Origin: Minisyncoccota bacterium
GTDB taxonomy: Bacteria; Patescibacteriota; Minisyncoccia; UBA6257; 2-01-FULL-56-20
NCBI GenBank assembly: GCA_035509435.1
Contig: DATJLR010000007.1
Span: 65,555-129,554 of the forward strand
Direction of reading: 5' to 3'
DNA: 64,000 nucleotides
Positions 151 to 49,411 of this stretch are shown piece after piece. The first letter of the stretch is position 1, and every line of letters begins with the position of its first letter. Position numbers and translations under genes: made by a program. The notes below the pieces were generated by a model. That model saw only the letters and a program-made list of their open reading frames with translations. It made no database searches and was not told where the DNA came from.

Positions 151-210
151 GGGAAGGCATGGGGTAATGATAGCAAGAAAAGAGGAGCCTCGCGAAAAGG
201 CCCCTCTCTA

Positions 211-987
211 CTATTTCTTTAGCTTCCCAACGAAGAGAAACGCATTGCGAGTACGTCCATCGCTAATCCCAAGGGACCGCTCGAACCACTCATTTACTAC
301 GGGATCAGCACAACCTGGTATGGTTCCGTACAAGCAAGACTTATAAAGATTCTCTATCCTGAATGTACGTAGGTCGAGACCTTCCCAGCGCCTCTTCACA
401 TTTAAGGCAACGGCTAAGCTACGAACTTCCGACGACGTTCTTTTCATTGAGGGTCTGGGATAGACTTCCTCGCAAAGAGACTCCGCAAAGCAGAACATAA
501 TCGGATTTTGGGTGGTAAAAGCCAACCAAGGCAACCCGACGTTTTCGATGAGGGCCTTCGATAGTGCCAACCCGGCCCCTCTTCCCTTGAAATCGGGAGC
601 AATGGCCACTCCGTGGAGATAAAAGATCCCTTCGGCTGCGAATAGTTGGGACGATGCGAAGCCGAGAATCTTTCCGTCGTCGTACAAAAACGCCAATGAG
701 TCGACGTTGATCAAATGCGCCCGCACTCCGTCGGGTCCATCTTTGTCGAGTTCGCTTCCGAAGCTTTCTGTCGTAATCTTCTCGAGCGCGCCTACGAGAT
801 GATCTACGAACTCCTGATTGTCATCGGCCAGTAATGCCGATTTCGGGTTGTTGAGGACCGCAAGATATGCATCGTGCCATCGTACGGACGAAGCGCCTTG
901 TTCACGAAGGAAAACTTCCCAGCTCTTCACGATACACCCCCTTTCTGTTTGAGAATTTTGAACATTACAAAACTCACATCTAGCCAT
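211..987 (-). CDS. GNAT-family N-acetyltransferase (putative)
   Basis: 258 aa ORF. Motif KGRGAGLALSKALIE matches the acetyl-CoA binding Q/RxxGxG/A loop of GNAT enzymes. Confidence 0.45.
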   Translation of the reverse strand: MARCEFCNVQNSQTERGCIVKSWEVFLREQGASSVRWHDAYLAVLNNPKSALLADDNQEFVDHLVGALEKITTESFGSELDKDGPDGVRAHLINVDSLAFLYDDGKILGFASSQLFAAEGIFYLHGVAIAPDFKGRGAGLALSKALIENVGLPWLAFTTQNPIMFCFAESLCEEVYPRPSMKRTSSEVRSLAVALNVKRRWEGLDLRTFRIENLYKSCLYGTIPGCADPVVNEWFERSLGISDGRTRNAFLFVGKLKK

Positions 988-1049
988 AAGATAGCATCTG
1001 GCACCTGGAGTGTCAAATCAGAGAGGTCAACCCCTCTCTGTGGGCAAAT

Positions 1050-1871
1050 TTACTTAATGGCCCTTACCAATAACTCCGTTTTTTTAAAATCGATCCGAGA
1101 AGTATAGGGTTTTACATTGACCTCATTCCTTTTTGCAATACCGTTTTTTATTGAGGTACTTACAATTGCCCCATCTGCAAAACGAAATAGACCTTTCACG
1201 TTTTTACTATTAATTCCGCTTCCAATAAAAATCGGAAATCCCCCGAGTTTTTCTCTGAGAACATTAAGATCATCAGCACGAGGGGCATCCCCTGTCCATC
1301 TCCCAGTGACTATGAGAACATCTGCCCCACCTTTAATTGCCAAACTTGCAGATTCGAGAAGGGAATACTTGGAGAGCAGGGTGGCGTGTTTCACATGAAT
1401 GTCAGTGAAAAGCATGACATGTTCCGCTTGGATGGATTTCTGAAAAGATCGGACCGCCCGAGGATTCCCTTCCACGACGCCGTACTGGGTGCGAACCTTA
1501 TCCACAAACACAGGGATACGCACAAAATCGAGGTTGAGAACCTTTGAGATGGACAGTGCGGTTCGATAATCATTCCACAGAACACTGATTCCGAGCGGCA
1601 GTGTAGTTGCCGCCCGAAGTTCTTTCCCGAGAAGCGTCATACAGGCCACAACACCAGGATCAACAAATGCCTTATGGGGAACGTCATAATTATTTTCAAT
1701 AATAATTCCATCAACACCACCCTTCTGAAGAGACGATAGGTCGGCAAGCGCGTTTCGTAATGCAACCCTTAACCCAGGGAAGCCCGCATATCCAAGGAGG
1801 GGCGGGAAATGAATCGCGCCGATGATGATATTCTTTTCTTTTTTGAACATTTGGCGGACATTGCGCTTCAT
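1050..1871 (-). CDS. BtpA/SgcQ-family TIM-barrel protein
   Basis: 273 aa. N-terminal IIGAIHFPPLLGYAGFPG and the overall pattern are typical of the BtpA (photosystem I biogenesis-like) family. Confidence 0.55.
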   Translation of the reverse strand: MKRNVRQMFKKEKNIIIGAIHFPPLLGYAGFPGLRVALRNALADLSSLQKGGVDGIIIENNYDVPHKAFVDPGVVACMTLLGKELRAATTLPLGISVLWNDYRTALSISKVLNLDFVRIPVFVDKVRTQYGVVEGNPRAVRSFQKSIQAEHVMLFTDIHVKHATLLSKYSLLESASLAIKGGADVLIVTGRWTGDAPRADDLNVLREKLGGFPIFIGSGINSKNVKGLFRFADGAIVSTSIKNGIAKRNEVNVKPYTSRIDFKKTELLVRAIK

Positions 1872-1956
1872 AAGACTTATAATATCTCAAAATAAAGGTT
1901 AAAAAAAGCCGATGGCGAGAGTGCCATCGGCAAGGTCAGGTGATAACCCAGGGTCA

Positions 1957-3126
1957 TTAGCTGACGAGAATCGGAACACGGGCGGCAATAGATTGAGCTT
2001 TTTCAAAATCTTTGCCTTGAAGGTGGATGCCTTTTGCCATGTCATAACACTCTCGAAGGTTTTTGGAACGACCCGCGAGATAAAACAATGCTGCGGCATT
2101 AGCCAAAACCATCTGCAGGGCAGGACCGCTAATCTGCCCGGAAAGAATTCTTTTTGAGAATTCTCCCTTGCTCATGCCAACAGGAGGAGTGATTTCCGCC
2201 CTGCTTACAGAGCGAAGGCCAAAATCCTCTGCCGTGAGGAAATATTCTGAAATCTCTCCATTCTTGAGCTCCGTGACCTGCGTTCCTCCAGGACAGATAG
2301 AGATTTCGTCCATCCCCTCATATCGTTTTGAATCTACAAACCCTCTCACAAACATGCCATGTTGCAGGTTAGTAATACCCCGGCGGTTGAGGATCTGATA
2401 CACTTCCGCGACAACATGCGGCGGTACAAGGTGATTTACCCCCAGGACCCTCCGAGAAAGCAGTTGAGGGTGCAGAGGATTAGTGATTGGGCCGATAATA
2501 TCGTTCATGTGGGGAAGTTTGGCAAGCGCATGGGTTTGTGAGTGAATACGCTTATAGTTGATATCAAGCGCCTCAGTATATCCAAACCCTTCTTCCTCAA
2601 CGCTGGCTTCGACACTTAGCCTATCGGCACGGGTGTCAATGCCCAAGGAAGCGACGAATTCCGAGCTTCCATGGCGTCCTTTATCGGCATTTGCTGGAGA
2701 GCCATGCTTGCACATGGGAATCCCGGCGGCGGAAGCGATTAGAGCGGCCAACGTGCTTACGTTCGCCGTGACGACAAGATCGCCCCCCATCCCGCAATTG
2801 TCCATTGCGTAGGATACTTTGGGGTGGAGAAAACCTGAGGGCGATACCGCAATATCATGCTCAAAGACCGCTGCACAAATCCCGGCGATTTGGTCAGCCG
2901 CAGAACGAGGGAGAGCGTGGCCATGTAATGCGCTTTGATCATCATTCCAACGCCACGCATAGGTTGCTTTGTTGTGCAGTGCGGACAATGCCGCAATGCT
3001 CTGGATCTGGGCCAAGGGATCGCCGTTGCACCCCTTAAGTGTATAGCGTCCCAGGTCGTAAGCCTCATCGAACGTCAACGGCACGTTCTGATAGGCGTGA
3101 TCCTTGAGGATATGCTTGATGTCCAC
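1957..3126 (-). CDS. Glycosyl transferase family 3 protein (anthranilate phosphoribosyltransferase-like)
   Basis: 389 aa. CGMGGD and KHGSPANADKGRHGSSEFVASLGI resemble the TrpD/thymidine phosphorylase GTGGD and KHG(N)R...S signatures. Confidence 0.5.
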   Translation of the reverse strand: MDIKHILKDHAYQNVPLTFDEAYDLGRYTLKGCNGDPLAQIQSIAALSALHNKATYAWRWNDDQSALHGHALPRSAADQIAGICAAVFEHDIAVSPSGFLHPKVSYAMDNCGMGGDLVVTANVSTLAALIASAAGIPMCKHGSPANADKGRHGSSEFVASLGIDTRADRLSVEASVEEEGFGYTEALDINYKRIHSQTHALAKLPHMNDIIGPITNPLHPQLLSRRVLGVNHLVPPHVVAEVYQILNRRGITNLQHGMFVRGFVDSKRYEGMDEISICPGGTQVTELKNGEISEYFLTAEDFGLRSVSRAEITPPVGMSKGEFSKRILSGQISGPALQMVLANAAALFYLAGRSKNLRECYDMAKGIHLQGKDFEKAQSIAARVPILVS

Positions 3127-3441
3127 ACGTACCTCCGTTGGTGATTTATTTTTGAATTGTTAAACAGCTATTCAGCACGTTCCGTGCTGATGAGCATTCG
3201 CTATACCCAAGGATATTAGTGACCGCTCATCAACATAAAACGAAACCTCTCGCAAAGCCGAGAGGTTTTAAAAAGTGCTTTAGATATACACTCAACTCAG
3301 GCTTTGCAAAAAGTCATCTTAATCCACCACCAATTGACGGATGAAAGCCTGTTCATATCAATATCAAAAGTGTAATAAAGCCTTAGAAGATTGTCAAGCA
3401 CGATACACATCAACACGCCCTACGCTCTTTAAAGTATAAAG

Positions 3442-3480
3442 AAAACGGGGCTTGCAATTGCAGCAAGCCCCGACCCGAAA
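3442..3480 (-). terminator. Rho-independent terminator downstream of the 3492..4625 gene
   Basis: Perfect hairpin GGGGCTTGC-AATT-GCAAGCCCC, followed on the minus strand by a U-rich tract (gttttctttat). Confidence 0.5.
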
Positions 3481-3491
3481 AACACTTCCCC

Positions 3492-4625
3492 TCATGCCGC
3501 ACCTTCCTTTGCCCCGGTCACGATCACATAGGCGCCGGATTCGGACGATGCGAGTTGCCGATCAACCTGTAATACGGCGTCTCGGGCCCGCTCCGTACTA
3601 AATAGATAGTTCGGCAGAAGAGGGCTCACGGTGGGATAGGTCATCCTCCGATTGATCTTCATCCCGGCAGGGAAAAAATCTTCCGCTTGCTCCACGCTAT
3701 AAGGCTTGGCGTAGACGGAAAATATTTCAGCGCCCACCCGGACGTCGAGACAAGACTTCTGATTATTGATGCCCGCGGCCAAATTTACCGGCCACGGCAA
3801 GAAGTCCCATTGATAAACGAGGGCATCGAGGTTATAGAACGAGAAGAAAAATCTCCCCCCCTTCCGCAAAACCCTTTGGGCCTCGCCGATCAAGTCCCGA
3901 ATGTTCCAGATATCGCTCGCCGTTCCGAGATTCATCATCACGAAAGACGCCGAATCATTCTGGAGAGGAATGCCATCCTCAAGGTCAACTTCTTGGAATC
4001 GGACCCTTTGCAGCCATCGGTGGTCGAGTTTACGACTTGCATTCTCGACCATATGACCGCTGAGATCATATCCCACTGAACGTTTGAACTTATCTGCCAA
4101 CCGGAAGGTCTGGGCGCCAGTCGCACAGCCAAGGTCGACAAAAAGCTCAGCGTCGTTCAGCATGTCAACTTCCTGCTCAAGCATCAGGTTCTCAAAATCC
4201 CGATACGCACGGGAGGCGAAGAACTCGCTGCCGTATTGCTCGTCGTACACGGGAGCAATGCGTTCAGTGAGTTGCAAGAGGTTTTGTTTGAGAATTTGAT
4301 ACCATTCCTCCTCATCTTGGGTGTCATAGGGAGGGTTGTATATCCCTTGAAGCTGGATCATCTGCTGCTTGCACGATTCTCCGATAATGTTGTACAGCAC
4401 CGCCGCCGCGAAATTCGGGTTTAAACCGATTTTCTCGGCCAGCTTTTGCACCCGGAGCAGGCGCTCACCTTCTTTTTCGCGCCGGAAGATGGGTTGATCG
4501 GTGGCACGTTTGTACGCGCCAACATCGAGAGATAAAGCCATTCGATGAGCCATGAGAATAAGCAGAAGCTCATCCACGGACTCAAGCCTGGCCCCTAACT
4601 GCTCAAGGTTGAGCGATCGGATCAT
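3492..4625 (-). CDS. Chorismate mutase (AroQ-like N-domain) fused to a class I SAM-dependent methyltransferase
   Basis: First ~95 aa (LEQLGARLESVDELLLILMAHRMALSLDVGAYK...PIFRREKEGERLLRVQKLAEKIGLNPNFAAAVLYNIIGESCKQQ) fit the AroQ chorismate mutase pattern. The downstream region has methyltransferase motif I, LFVDLGCATGAQTF. Confidence 0.5.
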   Translation of the reverse strand: MIRSLNLEQLGARLESVDELLLILMAHRMALSLDVGAYKRATDQPIFRREKEGERLLRVQKLAEKIGLNPNFAAAVLYNIIGESCKQQMIQLQGIYNPPYDTQDEEEWYQILKQNLLQLTERIAPVYDEQYGSEFFASRAYRDFENLMLEQEVDMLNDAELFVDLGCATGAQTFRLADKFKRSVGYDLSGHMVENASRKLDHRWLQRVRFQEVDLEDGIPLQNDSASFVMMNLGTASDIWNIRDLIGEAQRVLRKGGRFFFSFYNLDALVYQWDFLPWPVNLAAGINNQKSCLDVRVGAEIFSVYAKPYSVEQAEDFFPAGMKINRRMTYPTVSPLLPNYLFSTERARDAVLQVDRQLASSESGAYVIVTGAKEGAA

Positions 4626-8575: not shown

Positions 8576-8730
8576 GGTAGTACTCTCCTTCTAGCATCAG
8601 CAACGATGTTCTGTCCTGTGTGCTCCAAAAATTCTACCATACATTTGCGATTTTGGCAACCCCCTCTCTTTTCCCTCTCTATTAAAACGAAAACAGCCCC
8701 AGGCAAAAGCCTGAGGCTGTTTGAGTTGAA

Positions 8731-11409
8731 CTACTGCGCTCCCGGGCAGCCGGCGCCGTTCGGATTCTGTTCGCAGAGGCTGGAGCCGCCTACCGTCACT
8801 GTGGCATTGGAAGTCACCGTTGACCCGGCGCCGCCATAATTGCTGTTCACGCACGTGAGAGTGTAGGCGGTGGTGCTCGTGGGGGTCACCGCGAACGGAT
8901 TGGCCGTGGTGTCGATGGTGCCCTGGGACGAGAGCGATGTCGAGGACAATATCGTGCTCCCCTGCGTGAGCTGGCACGCCGTCACGTTCGAGCAGCTGTA
9001 GCTCAGGCCCGAGGATTCAGGAATGACGATCGATGAAGGGTTCGCGGTGAGCTTCGGACTGCAGACGGGGCAGTTGACGCCCGGAGTGCACGCCGGCGGC
9101 GGGAGCACCGTGATCGTCACTGTTTGCGAAACGCTCGGGTTTGCCGTCGACGTTACCTTGATCGTCACGGTCGTCGTCGTGTTCACCGTAGCGGGCGGCG
9201 TGTAGACGCCGGTCGAAGAGATCGTGCCGCCGCCCGAGACCACGGTCCATGTGACGCCTGGTGCCCCGGGCTGGCCGTTCTGGGTGGTCGTTGTCGCGTT
9301 GCAATCGCTCGTGCCGTTCGTATAAGTAGAGCTCGGCGTGCAGCTCACCGTGATGCCCGTGACAGGCGCTTCAGTGACCGTGATCGTGTCGGTGCCGGAC
9401 TTCGAAGGATCCTGGTTGGAGGTGCCTTTTACGGTCACAGTGATCGAACCTGCCACCGATGCAGGGGGTGTGTAGACGCCGGTCGAAGAGATCGTGCCGC
9501 CGCCCGAGACCACCGTCCACGTGACGCCTTGGCCGGAGCCGCCGCCAATGGTCGCCGTGCAGTTGCTTGTTTCCTCGGTATTGATCGGGCTCGGCGCGCA
9601 GTTCACGCTCACACTTGTGACGGATCCGCCCGGACCGCCGCCTGTGACCACGGTGATCATGCCGGTGTTGGACTTCGAAGGATCCTGGTTGGAGGTGCCT
9701 TTGATCGTGACGGTCGTCGTCGCAGCGACTGACGGGGGCGGCGTATAAACGCCGGTTGAAGAGATCGTGCCGCCGCCCGAGACCACCGTCCACGTGACAC
9801 CCTGGCCGGAGCCGCCGGTGATGGTCGCGGTGCAATTACTCGTTTGGGTAGTGTCGATCGGATTCGGCGCGCAGTTCACGCTCACACCGGTGACAGAGCC
9901 TCCTCCTCCTCCGCCGCCGCCCGAGCCGCCGGTCGGAGTCACTGTGATCGTGCCGGTGCCCGATTTCGAAGGATCATCTTTTGACGTTCCCCTCACCGTC
10001 ACCGTTGTCGTCGCGTTCACCGTCGCCGGCGGCGTGTAGACGCCGGTCGAAGAGATCGTGCCGCCGCCCGAGACCACCGTCCACGTGACGCCGCCGCCCG
10101 AGCCGCCGCTTACCGTCGCGGTGCAGTTGCTCGTCTGCGTAGTGTTGATCGGATTCGGCGCGCAGCCGACGCTTACGCCGGTGACAGGATTACTGCCGCC
10201 AGATCCGGGCGTGACGGTAAAGGTAATGGTAAGGACGGCGGTCGGTGGAGGCATAACAGTTCCCGGCGAGGAAGCTCCGGTAAATACTATTGTTCCGGTT
10301 TTTGTCGTTCCCGCCGCTAACCCTGCCGCATTTGCTGTAATGGTGACACTTTGCGAAGCATTACCTGAAGCACCATTCGTAATGCCTCCGGCATTTGTCG
10401 AAGGGGAAGCGGAGAGCCACGAGGAATTAGACGTAGCTGTCCACGTCAGCTTCGATCCCGGGGCACCGGTATTCGTTATCGTGACCGGACTTGTAACCGA
10501 ACTTCCGGCGGCGGCGCTGAGCGGTAGCGACGTGGGATTGACCGCAATATTGGCTTCCGGATCCCAAAGTATGATATACGACACCGTTCCGGAAGCTGTC
10601 AGTGTTTGAGAGGATGGAGTAGCGGTGGAGAGGCTGACGGCCTCAGCGGTTGAGCCGACAACGCCTCTCACGAGAGAGAGCATGGTCGCAAGGAATCCCC
10701 CGCTCTTTAATGAGGAAGGTGCCAACTTGATGGAGTTGAAAACATATGACTGTGGAGTCAGGAGCGAAACCGTATTGAGAGGCAAAATAATGCTGCCCGC
10801 TCCGGCAACCGAGTCGCCTACCGCAGGCTGATTGGAATAAGTTTGAGAGGTTCCTTGGCAATTCGTACCGTTACAAACAGAGGTAGCGCCATCGGTGATG
10901 CTCCACTTTGCCGGAACAAGGACGCTGTTAACTACCGAATTCTCCGAAGTTACCTTGACGGTACCAAGAACCGGCGGCGGCGGCGTCCCCGGCGTAACGT
11001 TGATCGTGATCGTTGTTGTCGGATATTCATCGGGGTCAACGCTGTCTGAACAATCCGCGTTGATGGTGAATGTTCCCGTTCCGGCTGCAATGCCCGTCAC
11101 GGAGAAAACACCTTGGCCCGCGATGGGCCCACTTGTATCCTTTACAAGAGTTGCCGAAAAATCAGCCGGGGTGCTCGGAATATCAAGCTGACACACCACT
11201 TCTTCGCCCGCAATTCCTTTCCCGCAACCGGGTCCTGAAATGTTTTCCGAGATCGTCTGCCCCACCTGGACAGAATAGGGTCCCTGGCTTTGGAATGCAC
11301 AATTGGTCATGCCGGCCGCAGCAGCAAAAGCAGAATGCGGAACAGACGCGGCGAACATGCCGATCGCCAAGAAAAGGACCGACGCGACGAGTGCTAAAGT
11401 TTTTTTCAT
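8731..11409 (-). CDS. Large secreted surface protein with four tandem Ig-like (Big-type) repeats and a Cys-rich C-terminus
   Basis: 892 aa. Signal peptide MKKTLALVASVLFLAIGMFAASVPHSAFAAAAG. A ~90 aa unit (VNCAPNPI.T.QTSNCTATI.GGSGQGVTWTVVSGGGTISSTGVYTPP) repeats four times. C-terminus ACTPGVNCPVCSPK. Confidence 0.7.
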   Translation of the reverse strand: MKKTLALVASVLFLAIGMFAASVPHSAFAAAAGMTNCAFQSQGPYSVQVGQTISENISGPGCGKGIAGEEVVCQLDIPSTPADFSATLVKDTSGPIAGQGVFSVTGIAAGTGTFTINADCSDSVDPDEYPTTTITINVTPGTPPPPVLGTVKVTSENSVVNSVLVPAKWSITDGATSVCNGTNCQGTSQTYSNQPAVGDSVAGAGSIILPLNTVSLLTPQSYVFNSIKLAPSSLKSGGFLATMLSLVRGVVGSTAEAVSLSTATPSSQTLTASGTVSYIILWDPEANIAVNPTSLPLSAAAGSSVTSPVTITNTGAPGSKLTWTATSNSSWLSASPSTNAGGITNGASGNASQSVTITANAAGLAAGTTKTGTIVFTGASSPGTVMPPPTAVLTITFTVTPGSGGSNPVTGVSVGCAPNPINTTQTSNCTATVSGGSGGGVTWTVVSGGGTISSTGVYTPPATVNATTTVTVRGTSKDDPSKSGTGTITVTPTGGSGGGGGGGGSVTGVSVNCAPNPIDTTQTSNCTATITGGSGQGVTWTVVSGGGTISSTGVYTPPPSVAATTTVTIKGTSNQDPSKSNTGMITVVTGGGPGGSVTSVSVNCAPSPINTEETSNCTATIGGGSGQGVTWTVVSGGGTISSTGVYTPPASVAGSITVTVKGTSNQDPSKSGTDTITVTEAPVTGITVSCTPSSTYTNGTSDCNATTTTQNGQPGAPGVTWTVVSGGGTISSTGVYTPPATVNTTTTVTIKVTSTANPSVSQTVTITVLPPPACTPGVNCPVCSPKLTANPSSIVIPESSGLSYSCSNVTACQLTQGSTILSSTSLSSQGTIDTTANPFAVTPTSTTAYTLTCVNSNYGGAGSTVTSNATVTVGGSSLCEQNPNGAGCPGAQ
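9150..10260 (-). repeat. Four tandem ~280 bp near-identical coding repeats inside the 892 aa surface-protein gene
   Basis: The DNA motif gtgccgccgcccgagaccaccgtccacgtgac recurs near 9222, 9497, 9770 and 10058. Confidence 0.7.
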
Positions 11410-16504: not shown

Positions 16505-16999
16505 CTAGAGCGTCTTGCAGTAATCTCCCGTGCCCGTGCACGATAGCACGCCCGTCACCGTGGGGAAGCTTGCCCCGTTGTAATTGGTGAAGGCCGAATT
16601 GTTTGGATTCTCAAGCGTCGCCTCAAGGACATAGAGGCTTCCGGTGCCGTTCGTACCATACTGATAGTTATGGCCGGCAGTGGGATCGTTGGGAACGCTC
16701 GTGATGGCGATCGCCGTGGTTCCTTCGAGCGCAGTGGTCAAATTGGCCCACGAGCTGATCTCGCTGAAGTTGCCGCAGGACGAACCGGTCTGCTTGGTAC
16801 CCGGATAATAACCGCACTCGTTGTAGTAGAGCTCTAACCCGTTCTGGACCTCGCTCAAATCCGAGATCCTTCTCGCGTCGCGGCCTGCCTGCTGGGTCGG
16901 CCCAAGGCCGACGAGCACGACCGACGCCAAAATGGCGATGATCGCGACGACGATCAGAATTTCAATGAGGGTGAAGCCCTTTCTTTGCGTTGAGTTCAT
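16505..16999 (-). CDS. pilA: Type IV major pilin (PilA-like), Ser/Thr-rich
   Basis: MNSTQRKGFTLIEILIVVAIIAILASVVLVGL class III signal. 164 aa. The C-terminal half is rich in S/T/N/G. Confidence 0.75.
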   Translation of the reverse strand: MNSTQRKGFTLIEILIVVAIIAILASVVLVGLGPTQQAGRDARRISDLSEVQNGLELYYNECGYYPGTKQTGSSCGNFSEISSWANLTTALEGTTAIAITSVPNDPTAGHNYQYGTNGTGSLYVLEATLENPNNSAFTNYNGASFPTVTGVLSCTGTGDYCKTL

Positions 17000-18286: not shown

Positions 18287-19360
18287 TTATGTTCGCTCGA
18301 GCAGGATGCGCAGCTCGGAGGGATTGAGGGAGTACAGTTCGGCGTTGTCGAGGGTGACCTCTTTGTTCTTGATGAGGTTCACGAGCGAACGGTTGAGCGT
18401 GACCATGCCTTCCTGCAGGGACGTTTCGATGACGAGGTCGATCTGGTAGGTCTTGCGCTCGCGGATCAGGTTGCGGATGGCGGGGTTCACGATCATGATC
18501 TCCATCGCCGGGATGCGGCCGCCGGACACGCGCGGCAGGAGCCGGATGGAAATGATCGCGACGAGCGTCGCGGCGAGCTGGGACGTCACTTGCCCCTGCT
18601 GTTCCGCCGGGAACGAGTCGATGATGCGGTCGATCGTCTGCGACGCCGAGTTCGTGTGGAGCGTGGAGAGCACAAGGTGGCCCGTTTCGGACGCGGTCAT
18701 TGCGGTGCCGATCGACACCGCGTCGCGCATCTCGCCGATCATCACGACGTCCGGGTCCTGGCGCAGCACGGTGCGGAGCGCCGCATGGAAGCTCGTGGTA
18801 TCACTGCCGACCTCGCGCTGGGAGACGATGCATTTGTCCTGGGTAAAGAGATATTCCACCGGGTCCTCGATCGTGATGATGTGGTCGGTGCGGGTGTGGT
18901 TGATCTCGTCCACGATCGCGGCGAGCGTCGATGACTTGCCGTGTCCGGCGGGACCCACCACGAGCACGAATCCCTGCGAGAGCTGGGTGAAGTCGTGGAG
19001 CAGCGGCGGGAGGTTGAGCTCTTCGATCGTCTTGATGCGCGTCGGGATCAGGCGCAGCGCCGCGGCCAGGTATCCGCGCTGGAAGTACACGTTCACGCGG
19101 AAGCGCGCCTTATCGTCGAAGCTGTACGCAAAGTCCACCTGCCGCTGGGTGAGCAACTTTGCCTTCTGCTCGGGCGTGAGCAATTGGGACATGATCCCCT
19201 CCGCCGACTCCGGCGTCATGATCGCCTCCTTCTGGAGCGGGATGAGCACCCCGTCGATGCGCAGGGTCGGGCGCCGCCCCACCGCCAGGTGGAGGTCCGA
19301 TGCATTCTGCTTCGCCGCCGTCGTCAAAAGGTCGTTGAGCTGAGTCTTGTAATCATCCAT
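18287..19360 (-). CDS. pilT: Twitching-motility retraction ATPase PilT
   Basis: Walker A GPAGHGKSST. Asp and His boxes (IITIEDPVEY, HLVLSTLHTN). 357 aa, the typical PilT size. Confidence 0.85.
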   Translation of the reverse strand: MDDYKTQLNDLLTTAAKQNASDLHLAVGRRPTLRIDGVLIPLQKEAIMTPESAEGIMSQLLTPEQKAKLLTQRQVDFAYSFDDKARFRVNVYFQRGYLAAALRLIPTRIKTIEELNLPPLLHDFTQLSQGFVLVVGPAGHGKSSTLAAIVDEINHTRTDHIITIEDPVEYLFTQDKCIVSQREVGSDTTSFHAALRTVLRQDPDVVMIGEMRDAVSIGTAMTASETGHLVLSTLHTNSASQTIDRIIDSFPAEQQGQVTSQLAATLVAIISIRLLPRVSGGRIPAMEIMIVNPAIRNLIRERKTYQIDLVIETSLQEGMVTLNRSLVNLIKNKEVTLDNAELYSLNPSELRILLERT

Positions 19361-19412
19361 GGAATAATCTTACCACATTGCCCTTTTGTCCCCCAAATAA
19401 AGGGTCAATTTC

Positions 19413-19739
19413 TTAAGCTATTTTTAATCGCCTTCTTGGCATGATGGCCGGATGGAAAAGCAGGAGGCAAAACTCTTTTATTCGCAAATCGGACACGTTC
19501 ATATGGGGAACTGAGGCAATATTGGCAGTGATCACTTGGGAGCTGTCCACAGTGATGTCCAAATAAGTGCTATTTGTGATGGAAAAGGTAGAACTAGTGC
19601 CACTGGTCGTGCCGGGAAGAGTGGGGATGGATTGGGCGCTTGCTCTGGGCGTAAAACTAATGAAAAGAAAACCGCCAAGCAGGGCGGCGGAAAAAATTAG
19701 GAAGCGGGCTGAGTAATCGACTAGAAATCGTTGTCTCAT
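19413..19739 (-). CDS. Small secreted hypothetical protein
   Basis: 108 aa. Signal-like LIFSAALLGGFLFISFTPRASA. Ser/Thr-rich. Confidence 0.35.
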   Translation of the reverse strand: MRQRFLVDYSARFLIFSAALLGGFLFISFTPRASAQSIPTLPGTTSGTSSTFSITNSTYLDITVDSSQVITANIASVPHMNVSDLRIKEFCLLLFHPAIMPRRRLKIA

Positions 19740-19795
19740 AGAATGCTTTCATAATACCACCTCCATAGCCCAACCCGCTCAAATTTGTGGATAAC

Positions 19796-20815
19796 TCAGG
19801 GAATTGTATATGTACTTGTAGCTCCCGACGGAAGAGTATATTGCAATTCTGAATCAGAAAGCCATAGAGGATGATAGTAATAAGTTGGATCGGTGGTGGT
19901 GGTGACAAGATAGTTTTGCCCAGTAAGGAGATTGTAAATATAGAAAGAGGTAATTTGGCCTGCTTGCTGAGCTTGATCGCGATATTCCTGATCGATCTGG
20001 GAATCTGCGGTCCATGGAGCAACATTAGTTTCGTAGGTTGTCATACCTACATCGGGATTAAGAGCATCGCCGCCCATGGTGGTGTGGGGAGCTGAGAACA
20101 CTTGATAAGACCAGTTTGATGTGTCGATACGCAGAAAACCTAAAGTGTCTGCTTCATCATTAGAATCAAACCATAGATATCTTCCATCATGACTCCATCC
20201 TCCGTTTTCAAGATCGAAATTCACGATTGTATTCGATTCTTGCTCCGGGATTTGGGAAAGAGACAGGGAAAAAACAATATTATCGTTACTTAGGTCGTAG
20301 ACCTCCAAAGAGGGCATCGTCGAAGTTGTTAAAAAGGAAACTGCGGCCATCATGGTTTGGCTTGAATTCACCCTGAAATCCTCAGCAGTGCCTATTTCTT
20401 GACTGTTGCCGCTGTAATCATATTTCCATACTTGGATGTTAAAATTGGGCAGCACCTTCCCATGAACATAATCATAATTAAATTCTCGCATCACATAAAA
20501 ATTACACGAGTATAATTCGATGGGATGATAACTGGGGAATAGATCATTTATAATAAAAGAGGAATTGGCATTGTTCGCTTTATCTTCAATAGTAATTTTT
20601 ATTGTATCGGTAGATGTGAGGGGGGTGTTAATAGAATAGCTTGCCGACTCGTCGCCTGAAAGGCATCCAGTTGTCGTAGAGGAGCTAGCTACATTCGCGA
20701 CCACTCCAGATGGCGAAGTCGAAGCTGGGGATAAATAATGGCGAAAGACAATGAGAGTTAAGGCTACGATGGTTATAACTATGCACGACACTATAATCCA
20801 AAATCTTCTGCTCAT
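19796..20815 (-). CDS. Secreted/anchored beta-propeller-like hypothetical protein
   Basis: 339 aa. N-terminal TM FWIIVSCIVITIVALTLIVF. WSHDGRYLWF and YIYNLLTGQNYLVTT resemble TolB/WD-like propeller blades. Confidence 0.4.
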   Translation of the reverse strand: MSRRFWIIVSCIVITIVALTLIVFRHYLSPASTSPSGVVANVASSSTTTGCLSGDESASYSINTPLTSTDTIKITIEDKANNANSSFIINDLFPSYHPIELYSCNFYVMREFNYDYVHGKVLPNFNIQVWKYDYSGNSQEIGTAEDFRVNSSQTMMAAVSFLTTSTMPSLEVYDLSNDNIVFSLSLSQIPEQESNTIVNFDLENGGWSHDGRYLWFDSNDEADTLGFLRIDTSNWSYQVFSAPHTTMGGDALNPDVGMTTYETNVAPWTADSQIDQEYRDQAQQAGQITSFYIYNLLTGQNYLVTTTTDPTYYYHPLWLSDSELQYTLPSGATSTYTIP

Positions 20816-20851
20816 CTTCTAATCCTAACACATTGATTTTTGCATCCGCCC

Positions 20852-21262
20852 CTATCCGGAAAAGAATATATTGCCATCAAGATTTTGAGCATAGGCAGCA
20901 ACGTTCGGCGTATACCCGCTCGAACCTCCCGCGCCTATACCCGCCCCGTCATGCCCCGCGTAGTAAATGGTACAAGTAAGCACACAACCGCTTCCATCCC
21001 AACTTTCCGATCCATTTGAGGGAGATAAGCCACCCTCTCCAATAGAGGACGTTGCATAGTAAGTTGCAAAATTTATATTCGTGTTAAATCCGCCACCATA
21101 TGAAGCAATGATTTCCGTCCCGCTTGCGGTTAGAGTTCCCCAGGTTGAATATGAAGAATATCCATCCGGAGGAAGACTCAGAGAGGTACTCGCTGCAAAA
21201 GAAAAGTGTGGGAGTAAGAATATCCCTAATCCTATTGCTAAGATGAAAATATATTTTTTCAT
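20852..21262 (-). CDS. Small secreted Gly/Ser-rich protein
   Basis: 136 aa. Signal peptide MKKYIFILAIGLGIFLLPHFSFA. Confidence 0.4.
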   Translation of the reverse strand: MKKYIFILAIGLGIFLLPHFSFAASTSLSLPPDGYSSYSTWGTLTASGTEIIASYGGGFNTNINFATYYATSSIGEGGLSPSNGSESWDGSGCVLTCTIYYAGHDGAGIGAGGSSGYTPNVAAYAQNLDGNIFFSG

Positions 21263-21304
21263 GGGTTGTTTTGTAATGTTTTTTCGGCTTAGATCTTAAA
21301 AAAT

Positions 21305-21652
21305 TTAAAGATTCGAAAAAACCAGAAGCCAAAAAATGAGGTATAAAAGTAATGGCACTAAAATAAAGCCAATTGCTAAAAATACCCATACAAGCCACCG
21401 CTTTTTTGTATGCCACCATTTTTGAAAAGCAGGTACAATAATCCAAAATCCTGAGACGCCAATGAGTATTAAAACTATTGCTACAGACATTACAAAAATA
21501 AAAAATGTCCCGGATACGTTCGCATAGGTAGCGTAAATGCCATTCGCTTCAGCTAGGATACAGCCTAAAATTAGTAATATAATTCCGGCTGATACATTTA
21601 CCGCTGTCCGCCATCCTTTCGGAACTATTTTTGAATCCTCATTTACCTTCAT
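21305..21652 (-). CDS. Small integral membrane protein
   Basis: 115 aa with 3 predicted TM helices. Confidence 0.4.
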   Translation of the reverse strand: MKVNEDSKIVPKGWRTAVNVSAGIILLILGCILAEANGIYATYANVSGTFFIFVMSVAIVLILIGVSGFWIIVPAFQKWWHTKKRWLVWVFLAIGFILVPLLLYLIFWLLVFSNL

Positions 21653-21805
21653 ATTGTTCTGGTTTCAAAAACCGCCAATTGGAATGGCGGCGATAAAAAT
21701 AGATGGGGGGCTATGCGCTCGACTAGGAATCGTTGCCTCATTGGAATGCCTTCAGTATACCAACATTCCCAATCTACACCTGTGGATAACCCCGAAATCG
21801 GTGTC

Positions 21806-23231
21806 CTACCGTGTTTCGAACAATGCCAGATATGGTCCAATATATAGTTGCTGCACCGCGCGATGGAACGGTTGGGCTACCGCTAACTTGCTCAGATCGG
21901 CAGTGGGAACAACAAGAAAGTTTGAACTAGCCGGAAGCTCGCCTGGATTCTGGATAGAACTAACGTTTGTGCCGCTATAAAACATGATGGTATTCCCCGG
22001 CACCCAGTCGTAAAGAAAAATGTCCTTCTGGGAATCTTGGGCATTAATAAGAAGTCCGACGGTCTTTTCATCCGACAGATAGCCGAGGTATTGCGGCACC
22101 TGGAAGAAGGCAGTATTTATGGTATTCCAAAAACCAATGACTAAAATACCGCAACAGGCAAGGGCCAAGATGGTGGTTTTGAATTGCCGTGGCACACGAT
22201 CAACCAATCCGAACAGAACTGCACCGACAAAGATAAGCGCAAACGGGAATATGGGTAGAAGATATGTGAATATTTTTGTGCGTGCGGCGAGAAACATCGC
22301 AAAGATGATCATCGTCGACAAGAAACCGAACCACACGATCTTTTTTTTTCTGATCGCTTTTTCCCATAAAAAACAGCGATACAATTGCAGCGAGGAATAG
22401 AACGGTCCACGGCTGGACCTGCGACCAGAGCGCCTCCAAATAATCAAGGGACGTAAGCGGCTGGTCCCCAGGCGACTGTGTCCCTCGATTAAACACTTGC
22501 TGAACGATATAGCTCTGCCAAAATGCGGGTCCGTAGTGGATCGTCTCATAGATCGGCCACGGCAGGATGATAAGCAGCATCAACCCCAACCCGATAAGAA
22601 AATATTTATTTTGGGTCCAAGCCCACTTCTTATAAAGAATGCTCAAAATCACCATGGGGATGAAAGCAAGGAGGCCGATCACGCTCTTCGTCATAAATCC
22701 CACACCGATGCCGATTCCCACACCTAAAAGCCATTTTGCATGTCCGGGTTTAGTCCCCCTAATAAAACACCAAGTGGCGAAAAGGATCGCGGCGATGGTC
22801 GCTACATCCATCCTTACTTGCCGCGCAAACACGAAGAACGGCGCCACGGCAAGAAGCGATATGCCACAGAAGAACGACAACCATACATCCTCCGAAAGTT
22901 CCCAAACGATCAGAAAAAGAAATGCTACCGCAAGAATATTAAAAAACGCTGATGGAATTCGAATGGCAAATTCCGAAGCTCCAAAGAATTTCATGCTTAA
23001 AGCAACAAGCCAGATATAAAGCGGTGGTTTCTCAAACCAGTTGGTGCCGCCGTATTGAAGCGTCATCCAACTGCCATGCGCCAGCACATTCTGTGCTATC
23101 TGGGCATAGGTCGCTTCGTCGTAATCGGCAAGCGGAAGCCTGCCGAGCTGAAAAAAAGTGAAAACCATTGCGACTACGACCAGAACCAAAAAGAGGATGG
23201 CCCAAAGTTTTTTTCGAGAGGGAATGGGCAT
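21806..23231 (-). pseudogene. GT-C fold glycosyltransferase (GT39/ArnT-PMT-like), split by a frameshift at an A9/T9 homopolymer (22341-22349)
   Basis: N-terminal piece (track ORF 22200..23231) has ADYDEATYAQIAQNVLAHGSW...FEKPPLYIWL, the DE loop typical of ArnT/PMT. The C-terminal piece (21806..22549) continues the TM-rich body. Both frames read KKK across the same 9-nt run, and one base fewer would restore a ~460 aa ORF. Confidence 0.6.
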
Positions 23232-23243
23232 TCAGTTTGTTCC

Positions 23244-24962
23244 CTACCCTTCCTCCGTCTCTCTTATGATCTCCTCGATCGGCACGCTTCCCTTCAGCGC
23301 CTTCACGATGCCGTCCTGGCGGAGCGAGATCATGCCCTGCGCCTTTGCCTGCGCGGTGATCTTTTGCGTGGTGGCGCCGCTGCTCACGATGTTCTCGATC
23401 TCCTTCGTGATGAGGAACGCCTCGTAGATGCCGGTGCGGCCGACGACGCCGCGGCCCTTGCACGTGGCGCAGCCCTTGGCGTGATAGATCTGGTACGGCG
23501 GCTTGAACTCTGCGGCCACCTCCGCCGGCAGGCCGGCGAGCGAACGCTTGATGATCTCCTGCACCTCCGGGGCCGCCTCTTCCGGCGCTTTGCAATCCGG
23601 GCAGAGCACGCCCACCAGGCGCTGTGCGATCACCAAGCTTACCGACACCGGGATCAGGAACGGCTCCACCTTCATGTCGATGAGGCGCGGGATGACGCCG
23701 GCGCTGTTATTGGTGTGCAATGTGCTGAGCACGACGTGGCCGGTGAGCGCCGCCTGCACGGCAAGGCCCGCGGTCTCGTTGTCGCGGATCTCGCCGACCA
23801 TGATCACGTCCGGGTCCTGGCGGAGGATCTGGCGCAGCCCCGACGCGAAGTCGTAGCCGATCTCCGGCCGCACCTGCGACTGGTTGATGCCGCTCACGAA
23901 ATATTCCACCGGGTCCTCGAGCGAAACGATGTTCACGTCCTCGGTGTTGAGGTCCTGCAGGAACGCGTAGAGCGTCGTCGTCTTGCCGGAACCGGTCGGG
24001 CCCGTGATGAGCACCATGCCGAACGGGCGGTTCAGGCCTTCTTTGATGACGGCGCGCGTCGGCGGCAGGAGGTCCAGGCTCTCGAAGTTCTTGAGGCCGG
24101 TGGTCGGGTCAAGCACGCGGATCGCGATCTTTTCGCCGAGCGGCGTGGGAAACGTGGCGACGCGGAAGTCGATGTCGCGGTCGAAGATCTTGGCGCGGAA
24201 GCGGCCGTCCTGCGGCACGCGCGTCTCGTCGATCTTTAAGCTGGAAATGACCTTGACGCGCGATGTGACCGGCTGGGCGAGCTCCACCGGAAGCGACGCC
24301 ACCTCGTGCAGATCGCCGTCGATGCGCAGGCGGATGCGGAGCGAGCGCTGCTGCGGTTCAATGTGCACGTCGGATGCTTTGCTCAAGACCGCTTCTTTGA
24401 ACGTGTCGGCGACGATCTTGATGATCGGCGCGTCGGCGCTGTCGCCGCCGGAGAGTTCCACTGCCTGCTGGCCGCCGCCGCCCTCTTTTATATTCAGTCC
24501 GCGCACCGCCGCTTCGATCTCCGTGCGATACGGCGAATATTTGCGGAGCACGGCCTGAAGATCGCCGTACGAGATCAGGTATACGCCGAGATTGATGTGG
24601 TTCTGCCGCGCGATGAACTTGATCGCATCCTGCGCTTTCACGTCGTCCGGATGCAGCATGCCGATCACGAGGAGTCCGTCCTGCAGGCTGATCGGGACAA
24701 GCTGGTAGGTGCGCGCCGTCTCTTCCGGAATGAGCCCCATCAGTTGGTCGTTCAGCATGGTGGGGTCGATCTTCTTGTACGGCACCTTGAGCAGCTCGCT
24801 CTTGAGCGCCACCATCTGCTCGTCGGGGACCAGGCGCTCGCGGCCGATGATCGTCTCCGGCGGATCGCCGCTCACGATCGCGTCGCGCTTGAGCCGCGTG
24901 GCGACCGATTCGTTTATCAGCCCGCGGCTCTGCAGTTGTTGGATCAGCTCATCATTCGTCAT
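23244..24962 (-). CDS. pilB: Type IV pilus assembly ATPase PilB (GspE family)
   Basis: 572 aa. N-terminal GspII-like domain. Walker A LITGPTGSGKTTTL. Tetracysteine CPDCK...CATCKGRG. Confidence 0.9.
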   Translation of the reverse strand: MTNDELIQQLQSRGLINESVATRLKRDAIVSGDPPETIIGRERLVPDEQMVALKSELLKVPYKKIDPTMLNDQLMGLIPEETARTYQLVPISLQDGLLVIGMLHPDDVKAQDAIKFIARQNHINLGVYLISYGDLQAVLRKYSPYRTEIEAAVRGLNIKEGGGGQQAVELSGGDSADAPIIKIVADTFKEAVLSKASDVHIEPQQRSLRIRLRIDGDLHEVASLPVELAQPVTSRVKVISSLKIDETRVPQDGRFRAKIFDRDIDFRVATFPTPLGEKIAIRVLDPTTGLKNFESLDLLPPTRAVIKEGLNRPFGMVLITGPTGSGKTTTLYAFLQDLNTEDVNIVSLEDPVEYFVSGINQSQVRPEIGYDFASGLRQILRQDPDVIMVGEIRDNETAGLAVQAALTGHVVLSTLHTNNSAGVIPRLIDMKVEPFLIPVSVSLVIAQRLVGVLCPDCKAPEEAAPEVQEIIKRSLAGLPAEVAAEFKPPYQIYHAKGCATCKGRGVVGRTGIYEAFLITKEIENIVSSGATTQKITAQAKAQGMISLRQDGIVKALKGSVPIEEIIRETEEG

Positions 24963-48628: not shown

Positions 48629-49411
48629 TTATTTTAAGATCTTTTTGATGATGCGGATCGTCTCTTTCGGCCCGCTTGTCGGGACCGTCTGGACGCCCGA
48701 TTTTTTCGCCGCTGCGTCGTTTCCGCCCGGATAGAGCGCATCGCCGATAAACACCATGTCTTTTATCCGTATCTTCAGCGTTTTTTCGATCTGCCGGACA
48801 CCATAGGCCTTATCGATCCCCTTTTGCGTTATATCTATTGTTGTGAATCCGGCGGCGTGAACCTCGAGATCCGGCAATTTTTTTTGAAGCAATTTGGCGA
48901 TCCTGAGCTTGGTGGGCGTATTCTTTTTTGTCCACTCCTCCTTCATACGCACCCCTTTCTTTCCAAGCTGCGCCACGACATCCTGGCCGAGGAACGAGTA
49001 GGACATCTGCGATCCCCTGTCCTCGAGCGTCTTACCGTAGGTTTTTTTCGGCGGAACATAGCCGATCTCACTGAAGACATCTTTTACGGCCTTCCGGATC
49101 CTCTGTTTTTTAGACGAGGACAGGAAGTGAGCATAGACATTCTTCCATCCCTTGTCGTAGCGGTAGAATGCCGTCGCGGTGGTCGGAAAAAGGAAGAGGT
49201 TTTTGAAAAGCTCCGTCGGACAATCAAGGTTCGCGAGGAACTGTTTGCGGAATTGCCGGTAGCTCCCGCCCCCGATCACCGCCACTTTCTTTTTCTCCAG
49301 CAACGATGTGAGTGCGCGGGACATATCCGGCGCAAGATCGGACTTCGTCTTGGTAAGCGTGCCGTCGAGGTCAAAGACAATAAGAGATTTTTTTGAGAGG
49401 TCGTTTTTCAT
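48629..49411 (-). CDS. HAD-IIB hydrolase (phosphomannomutase-like)
   Basis: LIVFDLDGTLT (HAD motif I) and FIGDALYPGGNDAAA (motif IV). Confidence 0.55.
   Translation of the reverse strand: MKNDLSKKSLIVFDLDGTLTKTKSDLAPDMSRALTSLLEKKKVAVIGGGSYRQFRKQFLANLDCPTELFKNLFLFPTTATAFYRYDKGWKNVYAHFLSSSKKQRIRKAVKDVFSEIGYVPPKKTYGKTLEDRGSQMSYSFLGQDVVAQLGKKGVRMKEEWTKKNTPTKLRIAKLLQKKLPDLEVHAAGFTTIDITQKGIDKAYGVRQIEKTLKIRIKDMVFIGDALYPGGNDAAAKKSGVQTVPTSGPKETIRIIKKILK

Follow-up and report, generated by a model that had tools for sequence, protein, structure and literature searches.

We analysed a 64 kb window of DNA from an uncultured Paceibacterota (candidate phyla radiation, CPR) bacterium, in which the type IV pilus genes pilB and pilT are held apart by an AT-rich cassette segment (positions 19361-23243 of the window) carrying a split gene for a membrane glycosyltransferase of the GT-C type. 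All genes of the segment lie on the minus strand. The upstream flank is pilB (23244-24962, minus strand), encoding the pilus assembly ATPase, which was identified by Pfam T2SSE (417 bits) together with MshEN and by TIGR02538, where a score of 517 bits stays under that model's own cutoff of 675.65 bits. The downstream flank is pilT (18287-19360, minus strand), encoding the retraction ATPase, which matches TIGR01420 with 435 bits and exceeds the cutoff of 319 bits. Beyond pilT follow pilC, a gene for a pilin of 164 amino acids (16505-16999) and a prepilin peptidase gene. An earlier note on this DNA, made from the sequence alone, had described the segment as a low-GC cassette within the pilus operon and as a candidate phase-variable module for glycosylation of the pilin or the cell surface.

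The glycosyltransferase gene (21806-23231, minus strand) has its ATG 12 nt past the pilB stop codon and is split by a +1 frameshift. The frame breaks within a run of nine adenines (A9, read as T9 on the plus strand) at 22341-22349, and both partial open reading frames (ORFs) translate this run as Lys-Lys-Lys, exactly as the earlier note had it. The upstream ORF as it stands (22200-23231, minus strand, 343 amino acids) covers residues 1-297 of the enzyme followed by an out-of-frame tail of 46 residues; it reads ...SDQKKKDRV... and ends with a stop at 22200. The downstream part (21806-22340, minus strand, residues 298-474) is open and conserved in another frame, where it reads ...IRKKKIVWFGF... 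up to a stop at 21806. With one A fewer (A8) or two more (A11), the ORF is uninterrupted and has 474/475 amino acids. The loss of a single base thus mends the frame, as had been proposed, and the product has 474 amino acids where about 460 had been estimated. Tract lengths of A7 and A10 lead into the third frame, with a stop after 306-307 residues. In the protein the tract corresponds to a loop before the helix of residues 296-315. The A9 product lacks about five C-terminal transmembrane helices, the T318/Y323/P326/P329 motif and the C-terminal alpha/beta domain, and because of the loss of these helices and conserved residues it is probably inactive, i.e. either off or null.

The repaired protein was assigned to glycosyltransferase families by profile searches. 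Pfam PMT_2 (PF13231) is matched with 75.2 bits against a cutoff of 26.1 (E 8.7e-21), and Pfam PMT, which is also over its cutoff, gives a weaker match of 53 bits (E 4.2e-14). The best NCBIfam match is the ArnT model, whose alignment covers residues 15-345 and so runs across the break at 297; its score of 92.5 bits against an equivalog cutoff of 567 bits means that the enzyme is not an ArnT orthologue. For the bacterial Pmt equivalog NF058602 the score was 21.4 bits against a cutoff of 800. A profile made from 63 homologues matches the ArnT structure 5EZM over nearly its full length (positions 11-429, E = 8.7e-81), whereas the same profile matches the eukaryotic PMTs in the Protein Data Bank (PDB) only with E~1e-5 over ~110-140 residues. 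Furthermore, the AlphaFold2 (AF2) model of the repaired protein has a mean predicted local distance difference test (pLDDT) score of 95.2 and a predicted template modelling (pTM) score of 0.94, without any dip in confidence at the break, and a C-terminal alpha/beta unit of ~70 residues. A Foldseek search with this model returned ArnT (5f15) at the top, with a TM-score of 0.77 and E 1e-17, followed by other GT-C enzymes.

Five residues on the N-terminal side (D38, E39, K68, P69 and P70) are invariant in the 63 sequences and align with the ArnT stretches PDEGRYAE and YFEKPPF. In ArnT the acidic residues lie in the first external loop, and FEKPP is a lipid-phosphate motif. Past the break, Y323 is invariant and T318, P326, P329 and Y418 are near-invariant; the local motif YLLPIFPF aligns with the Y-x2-P-x2-P stretch of ArnT (GYIVPVIP). 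The enzyme is therefore an ArnT-type (GT83-like) GT-C glycosyltransferase, nearer to GT83 than to GT39. Of the former description as a GT39/ArnT-PMT-like GT-C enzyme, the GT-C assignment and the likeness to ArnT stand, by profile as well as by fold, and the placement in GT39 is dropped.

ArnT itself (GT83, the undecaprenyl-phosphate-L-Ara4N:lipid A transferase; 5EZM/5F15 from Cupriavidus metallidurans) shares with the present family the GT-C fold over nearly the full length, the D-E pair of loop 1 and the FEKPP motif. It differs in length (~550 amino acids versus 474) and the two proteins are 17% identical. No arn-operon partner genes were found in the cassette within the 64 kb window. By analogy with ArnT, we infer that the enzyme would use a lipid-phosphate sugar donor and act at the outer face of the membrane. 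CPR bacteria (Patescibacteria) are generally regarded as being without lipopolysaccharide and lipid A and are generally assumed to be monoderm, so the acceptor would have to differ from that of ArnT. ArnT-like GT-C proteins of ~470-490 amino acids are widespread in Paceibacterota/Patescibacteria, with about 60 homologues at E < 1e-30, and this family presumably acts on an acceptor other than lipid A.

The cassette segment is set apart from its surroundings by composition. Its GC content of 0.444 is the minimum among all 3.9 kb windows of the 64 kb (mean 0.566, standard deviation 0.033), and the GC content at third codon positions (GC3) is 0.31-0.53 for the cassette genes versus 0.885 for pilB and 0.894 for pilT. 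The last ~110 nt on the pilT side (19361 to ~19480) are 72% identical with the pilB-pilT spacer of a relative (L011) and, as an alignment of six genomes also shows, represent native pilT-upstream DNA. The insert proper is therefore about 19480-23243, or ~3.8 kb, with its right edge near 19480 and its left edge at the pilB stop codon. A second, independent assembly (L001) runs across the two junctions with 100% identity, by which a chimeric assembly was ruled out. Neither direct nor inverted repeats of note flank the insert.

The pilB-pilT junction was compared in 80 related pilT loci (L006-L085), taken from one genome per species and scanned up to 10 kb on each side; all are metagenome-assembled genomes of Paceibacterota or Patescibacteria. 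Both pilB and pilT are present in 72 of these loci. The median gap between the two genes there is 112 bp; 58 loci have a gap of at most 250 bp, 7 loci one of 251-600 bp, 4 loci one of 601-1000 bp and 3 loci one of ~2.9 kb. No homologue of the glycosyltransferase or of any other cassette protein was found in the 80 related pilus loci. The segment thus combines two features by which genomic islands are recognised: its composition deviates, and close relatives do not have it at this site. Its low GC between high-GC flanks agrees with the cassette as first described.

The larger gaps in the relatives are AT-rich inserts of 0.7-2.9 kb, and their cargo is unrelated to the cassette. They hold three proteins, one of which is an alpha/beta-hydrolase (L007), a pilin-like protein together with a dCMP-deaminase-like protein (L017), a single secreted protein of 879 amino acids (L076), an LPD3 domain protein (L011) or a tRNA-Ser (L013). 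The L017 and L018 loci differ by an indel of ~2 kb at the junction, and in L014 the adjacency is lost, with no pilB upstream. A 249 amino acid ORF in the L007 gap looked nucleotidyltransferase-like by eye but had no Pfam match. A hotspot targeted to tRNA genes was rejected, since no gap other than that of L013 contains a tRNA. In L011, pilB (8667-9356) is apparently frameshifted in its C-terminal third; its tblastn identity is 64%, compared with ~85% for its peers, and part of the ORF is garbled. Judging from the isolate name, MFD04780.bin.2.65, this assembly may be based on long reads, and the frameshift would then probably be due to faulty sequencing. Accessory genes have repeatedly been gained and lost in the pilB-pilT spacer of this Paceibacterota clade. 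Since other genomes carry unrelated cargo at this junction, a position inside the operon is weak evidence of function.

Transcription signals at the junction fit a spacer of this kind. In L008, L009 and L010 a long hairpin follows directly after the pilB stop (~30 bp, nearly perfect in L010), which is probably the pilB terminator in these relatives. The window is without this hairpin, and the cassette is therefore probably transcribed by read-through from pilB. An extended -10-like box, TGTGGTAAGAT, lies at 19377-19367, 6-8 nt before the pilT ATG, and is conserved in the window and five relatives (L007-L011) with the consensus TGTGGTAAnAT. Judged by its sequence, the box suggests a separate promoter for pilT, whose mRNA may be leaderless. 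Given the hairpin after pilB and the box before pilT, the spacer would separate two transcription units and tolerate insertions. General promoter and terminator scans gave no excess over the shuffled expectation.

Within the insert, a direct repeat of ~95 nt occurs twice on the minus strand. Copy B (21668-21762) lies just after the glycosyltransferase stop and contains a GC hairpin with a T run at 21692-21672, and copy A (19668-19759) lies just after the gene for a 339 amino acid protein, with its GC hairpin and T run at 19690-19672. The two copies are 75% identical with non-triplet indels, and their local alignment score is 68 compared with 16.6 +/- 2.2 for shuffles. Each copy opens with a TGGTAT(T/A)(A/C)T box and closes with the GC hairpin and T run. 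No further copies were found elsewhere in the window or in 85 related loci, and there was no Rfam match. We discarded an integron-like attC reading on these two grounds and because an extended imperfect palindrome is missing from the repeat (fold z-scores -1.35 and -0.45). The blocks bounded by the repeat differ in GC content (0.48 for the glycosyltransferase and 0.36-0.45 for the rest), which suggests two acquisitions or an internal rearrangement, and the repeat may mark a two-step assembly of the insert.

The closest intact homologues of the glycosyltransferase are P0001 (69% identity) and P0004 (49% identity), which have 474-485 amino acids and lie in non-pilus contexts. P0001 is found between genes for a cation ATPase and Ddl, and P0004 adjoins mraZ, mraW and genes for a penicillin-binding protein and a Mur ligase (the dcw cluster). 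At the tract position KKK, KRK or KRR is conserved in the homologues. The homopolymer is not conserved in orthologues, being absent from these two: the same loop reads CCAAAAAAGAAAATT (A6GA4) in P0001 and AAAGCGGCGG in P0004. The downstream part of the split gene product is 40% identical to P0004, versus 39% for the intact pair P0001/P0004 in the same region, and for the N-terminal part the corresponding identities are 53% and 51%. Since the downstream frame is open and no more diverged than the intact homologues are, the slip appears to be evolutionarily recent. From the sequence comparison, the frameshift would be either recent or bypassed.

Homopolymers of at least 8 nt occur only twice in the 64 kb window, i.e. 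the A9 tract and a T8 at 48878-48885. The latter lies inside an uninterrupted ORF (48629-49411, minus strand) and is a possible internal control for read-level stutter. By composition, an A/T run of at least 9 is expected 0.075 times in the cassette segment and one of at least 8 is expected 0.25 times, so an ancestral A8 coding for Lys-Lys-Lys would be unremarkable.

Only one tract length is on record. In run SRR8879132, a Logan contig of 5 kb that includes both junctions is 100% identical at the locus including A9 and is unbroken through the tract, and the 99 kb contig k141_288373 of ENA ERZ27256608 is also 100% identical including A9. Truncated products are additionally recorded at NCBI (HUC02149.1, an identical product, from a third-party annotation contig of 133 kb) and at JGI/ENA (from a contig of 459 kb). 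An exact-sequence look-up among ~15 billion proteins returned none of the A7, A8, A10 and A11 products with either start codon, and no intact allele above 69% identity is on record. A protein-seeded metagenome scan gave no further copies, and a metagenome DNA pattern consisting of the exact tract flanks with a gap of 6-12 nt gave zero matches. The shared A9 across assemblies argues against an assembler glitch.

We consider it somewhat probable that the segment is a horizontally acquired, lineage-specific accessory insert, whose GT-C gene carries a recent +1 slip and now stands as a fixed null allele. In such a course of events, ~3.8 kb of AT-richer foreign DNA would have entered the spacer between the pilB stop and the promoter of pilT in one Paceibacterota lineage. 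The insert would be a mosaic of two blocks, each closed by the same ~95 nt terminator-bearing element, where block 1 is the ArnT-type GT-C enzyme and block 2 comprises a small membrane protein, an orphan secreted protein and a membrane-anchored beta-propeller protein. The intact enzyme would have moved a sugar from a polyprenyl-phosphate carrier, at the outer face of the membrane, onto an envelope acceptor, which is presumably not lipid A given that the host is taken to be a monoderm CPR cell. One extra A in an ancestral A8 run of Lys codons (AAA AAA AAG) would then have produced A9 and truncation after residue 297.

Several observations weigh against this account. Neither an integrase nor att-like repeats were found in the insert, nor a tRNA within 10 kb, which bears on the route of acquisition. 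Probable co-transcription with the pilus genes leaves some room for a functional link. A gene that works by phase variation or recoding would likewise have an open and well-conserved downstream frame. All four A9 assemblies may share one sequencing run, so that they speak for reproducibility across assemblers and not across samples or different populations, and the assembled sequences and protein records are compatible with a mixed A8/A9 population.

Such a mixed population is what phase variation would give, with the A tract as a contingency locus that replication slippage switches at high frequency between ON (A8/A11) and OFF (A9/A10), a surface glycan on the pilin or another envelope target varied, and the sampled consensus OFF. 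The tract lies inside the ORF, has a length in the readily slipping range and toggles the frame by a change in length; the ON frames give a complete enzyme that is confidently folded in the model, the downstream frame is without decay, and a run of this length is rarely expected in the segment by chance. Transferases for surface glycans are classically phase-variable, with the pgl genes of Neisseria as an example (PMC10425976, PMC5953494). The pgl genes and Campylobacter Cj1295 share with the present gene a homopolymer in a surface-glycosylation gene where one base toggles the frame. In phase-variable glycosylation genes, variation in tract length is documented among isolates (PMC10425976, PMC5953494, PMC3068675), whereas here a single tract length is found among ~15 billion proteins with no closely similar intact allele, the homologues are without the tract, an A8 for Lys-Lys-Lys is ordinary in AT-rich DNA, and the Logan contig passes unbroken through the tract. 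Phase variation, as the earlier note had proposed it, is for these reasons unlikely. If instead the gene were functional despite A9, RNA polymerase slippage or a +1 ribosomal shift at AAA-G would have to supply some full-length enzyme. Slippage is well established at A/T runs of 9 or more (PMC5574713; PMC4256274), and the downstream frame is intact and conserved. An A11 run in Citrobacter rodentium tssM1 yields two products (PMC4256274), and this gene and the poly-A frameshifts of Buchnera resemble the present case in having an A run at the frame break and an intact downstream frame. The run here is A9 and not A11, and the mRNA would have to change by -1 or +2 nt to restore the frame, whereas insertions in transcription of homopolymers are overwhelmingly +1 (80% single-nucleotide) and deletions are rarely tied to homopolymers (PMC5574713). 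A +1 insertion would lead to the truncated product of 307 amino acids, and the site is not conserved in homologues, unlike programmed sites. Rescue by slippage therefore seems very unlikely to us, and we give an equally low weight to a sequencing or assembly artefact, where the true genome would have A8 and an intact gene. Homopolymers are the commonest site of indel errors and a single data set may underlie all the records, but A9 is present in at least three assemblies of different sizes across archives (5, 99 and 133 kb), with the 459 kb contig also on record; moreover, the k141 name suggests a short-read MEGAHIT assembly, in which a consensus error in a 9-mer would be uncommon. The probability that is left for the frameshift belongs to explanations not considered here.

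A different question is whether the GT-C enzyme is a dedicated pilin glycosyltransferase similar to TfpW, with the cassette as a module for pilus modification. The gene lies inside the type IV pilus operon on the same strand, directly behind pilB, the pilin has 21% Ser+Thr, and pilin glycosylation has been predicted but is unexplored in CPR bacteria (PMC11623550). No homologue lies within 10 kb of pilT in the 80 related pilus loci, the known homologues have non-pilus neighbours, and elsewhere the junction holds an unrelated hydrolase, deaminase or LPD3 protein. TfpW, the pilin D-arabinofuranosyltransferase of Pseudomonas aeruginosa group IV strains, has 646 amino acids with a C-terminal tetratricopeptide repeat (TPR) domain and the motifs DDX and YX6PFX7P, is encoded directly downstream of pilA, and needs DprE1/E2 (10.1101/2020.04.19.049825). 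It shares with the present protein the nature of a GT-C membrane enzyme, the type IV pilus locus and an acidic motif in loop 1. The present enzyme differs from it in having 474 amino acids and a small alpha/beta C-terminus without a TPR match in Pfam, in lying between pilB and pilT at ~5 kb from the pilin gene with pilT and pilC intervening, and in having no YX6PFX7P by regular expression search; no arabinofuranose genes were seen here. Its loop 1 has DYDE (D36-x-D38-E39) in place of DDX, which is a partial match. No defining feature of TfpW is thus clearly present, as three are absent and the acidic motif is partial.

The other pilin-modifying enzymes named in the earlier note give no closer parallel. 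TfpO/PilO and PglL belong to the Wzy_C/O-antigen-ligase superfamily and not to GT-C, so that the listing of TfpW and PilO/TfpO together as GT-C enzymes applies to TfpW. TfpO/PilO are described as oligosaccharyltransferases alongside PglL (10.1101/2020.04.19.049825). They are polytopic membrane enzymes like the present one and glycosylate pilins, with tfpO linked to pilA; the protein studied here gives a Wzy_C match under the cutoff (17.4 versus 31.7 bits) and its fold is ArnT-like. The major pilin was rightly noted as Ser/Thr-rich, but the exported proteins encoded in the cassette are at least as rich (22-23%), and if the enzyme modifies proteins these would, as a speculation, be acceptors equally plausible as the pilin. 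We regard a dedicated role in pilin glycosylation as quite unlikely, and the proposed pilin link found no support in the present tests.

The most far-reaching combination would be that the A tract is an ON/OFF switch, that the ArnT-type enzyme decorates the pilus or the co-encoded Ser/Thr-rich proteins, and that the pilB-pilT spacer is a 'plug-in' site for surface cargo. We hold this to be highly improbable. If it were true, Patescibacteria would have their first described system of phase-variable surface glycosylation, and at the pilB-pilT site this clade would exchange cargo that modifies the surface or is exposed on it and that is transcribed together with the pilus motor. A real switch would help in understanding how ultrasmall episymbionts vary their host-attachment surface and evade phages. 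At present the hypothesis of a switch is unsupported, and the gene adds a new but broken member to a known kind of enzyme in an understudied phylum. What is documented here is an uncharacterised family of ArnT-like GT-C proteins that is widespread in Paceibacterota. As a caution, position in an operon together with a break at a homopolymer is insufficient for calling phase-variable pilin glycosylation.

The remaining genes of the insert follow the glycosyltransferase on the minus strand. A small membrane protein of 115 amino acids (21305-21652) has three hydrophobic stretches, from which 3-4 transmembrane helices are expected, and the lowest GC content of the cassette (0.36). It has no Pfam family above cutoff and 21 distant relatives of ~110-120 amino acids. 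A three-component GT-C system, consisting of a synthase, a small flippase and a GT-C enzyme (PMC11127046), was considered and found unsupported. The 115 amino acid protein has no GtrA or SMR-type Pfam match and is not found next to homologues of the glycosyltransferase, and there is no GT2 among the 10 other window ORFs scanned.

The next gene (20852-21262) encodes an exported, Gly/Ser-rich protein of 136 amino acids with a signal-peptide-like N-terminus, MKKYIFILAIGLGIFLLPHFSFA|AS. This protein is an orphan, matching only itself among 5.8 billion clusters. It is followed by the gene for the 339 amino acid protein (19796-20815), which in the AF2 model (pLDDT 88) consists of an N-terminal transmembrane anchor, a disordered Ser/Thr-rich linker (residues 28-47) and a beta-propeller. 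Its matches to TolB and peptidase propellers are weak and generic (TM-scores 0.3-0.47). We rejected the reading of this protein as a beta-propeller adhesin or minor pilin, as it has no N-methylation motif and only the generic propeller matches. It belongs to a family of 31 members in Patescibacteria, which are encoded beside large hypothetical proteins or mobile-type genes and in no case beside a GT-C or pilus gene.

A further ORF of 108 amino acids (19413-19739) is a doubtful gene without family matches. It starts inside copy A of the repeat, contains the terminator-like hairpin of that copy and ends in the native pilT-upstream DNA, and for its start and end it is probably not a gene. Three secreted proteins and a small membrane protein had been listed for the cassette; the exported 136 and 339 amino acid proteins and the 115 amino acid membrane protein are retained, and the 108 amino acid ORF is not.

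Elsewhere in the window, a second and milder low-GC stretch (0.46-0.50) is found at ~200-3500, encoding a GNAT acetyltransferase, a BtpA-family protein and a Glycos_transf_3 protein of the phosphoribosyltransferase type.

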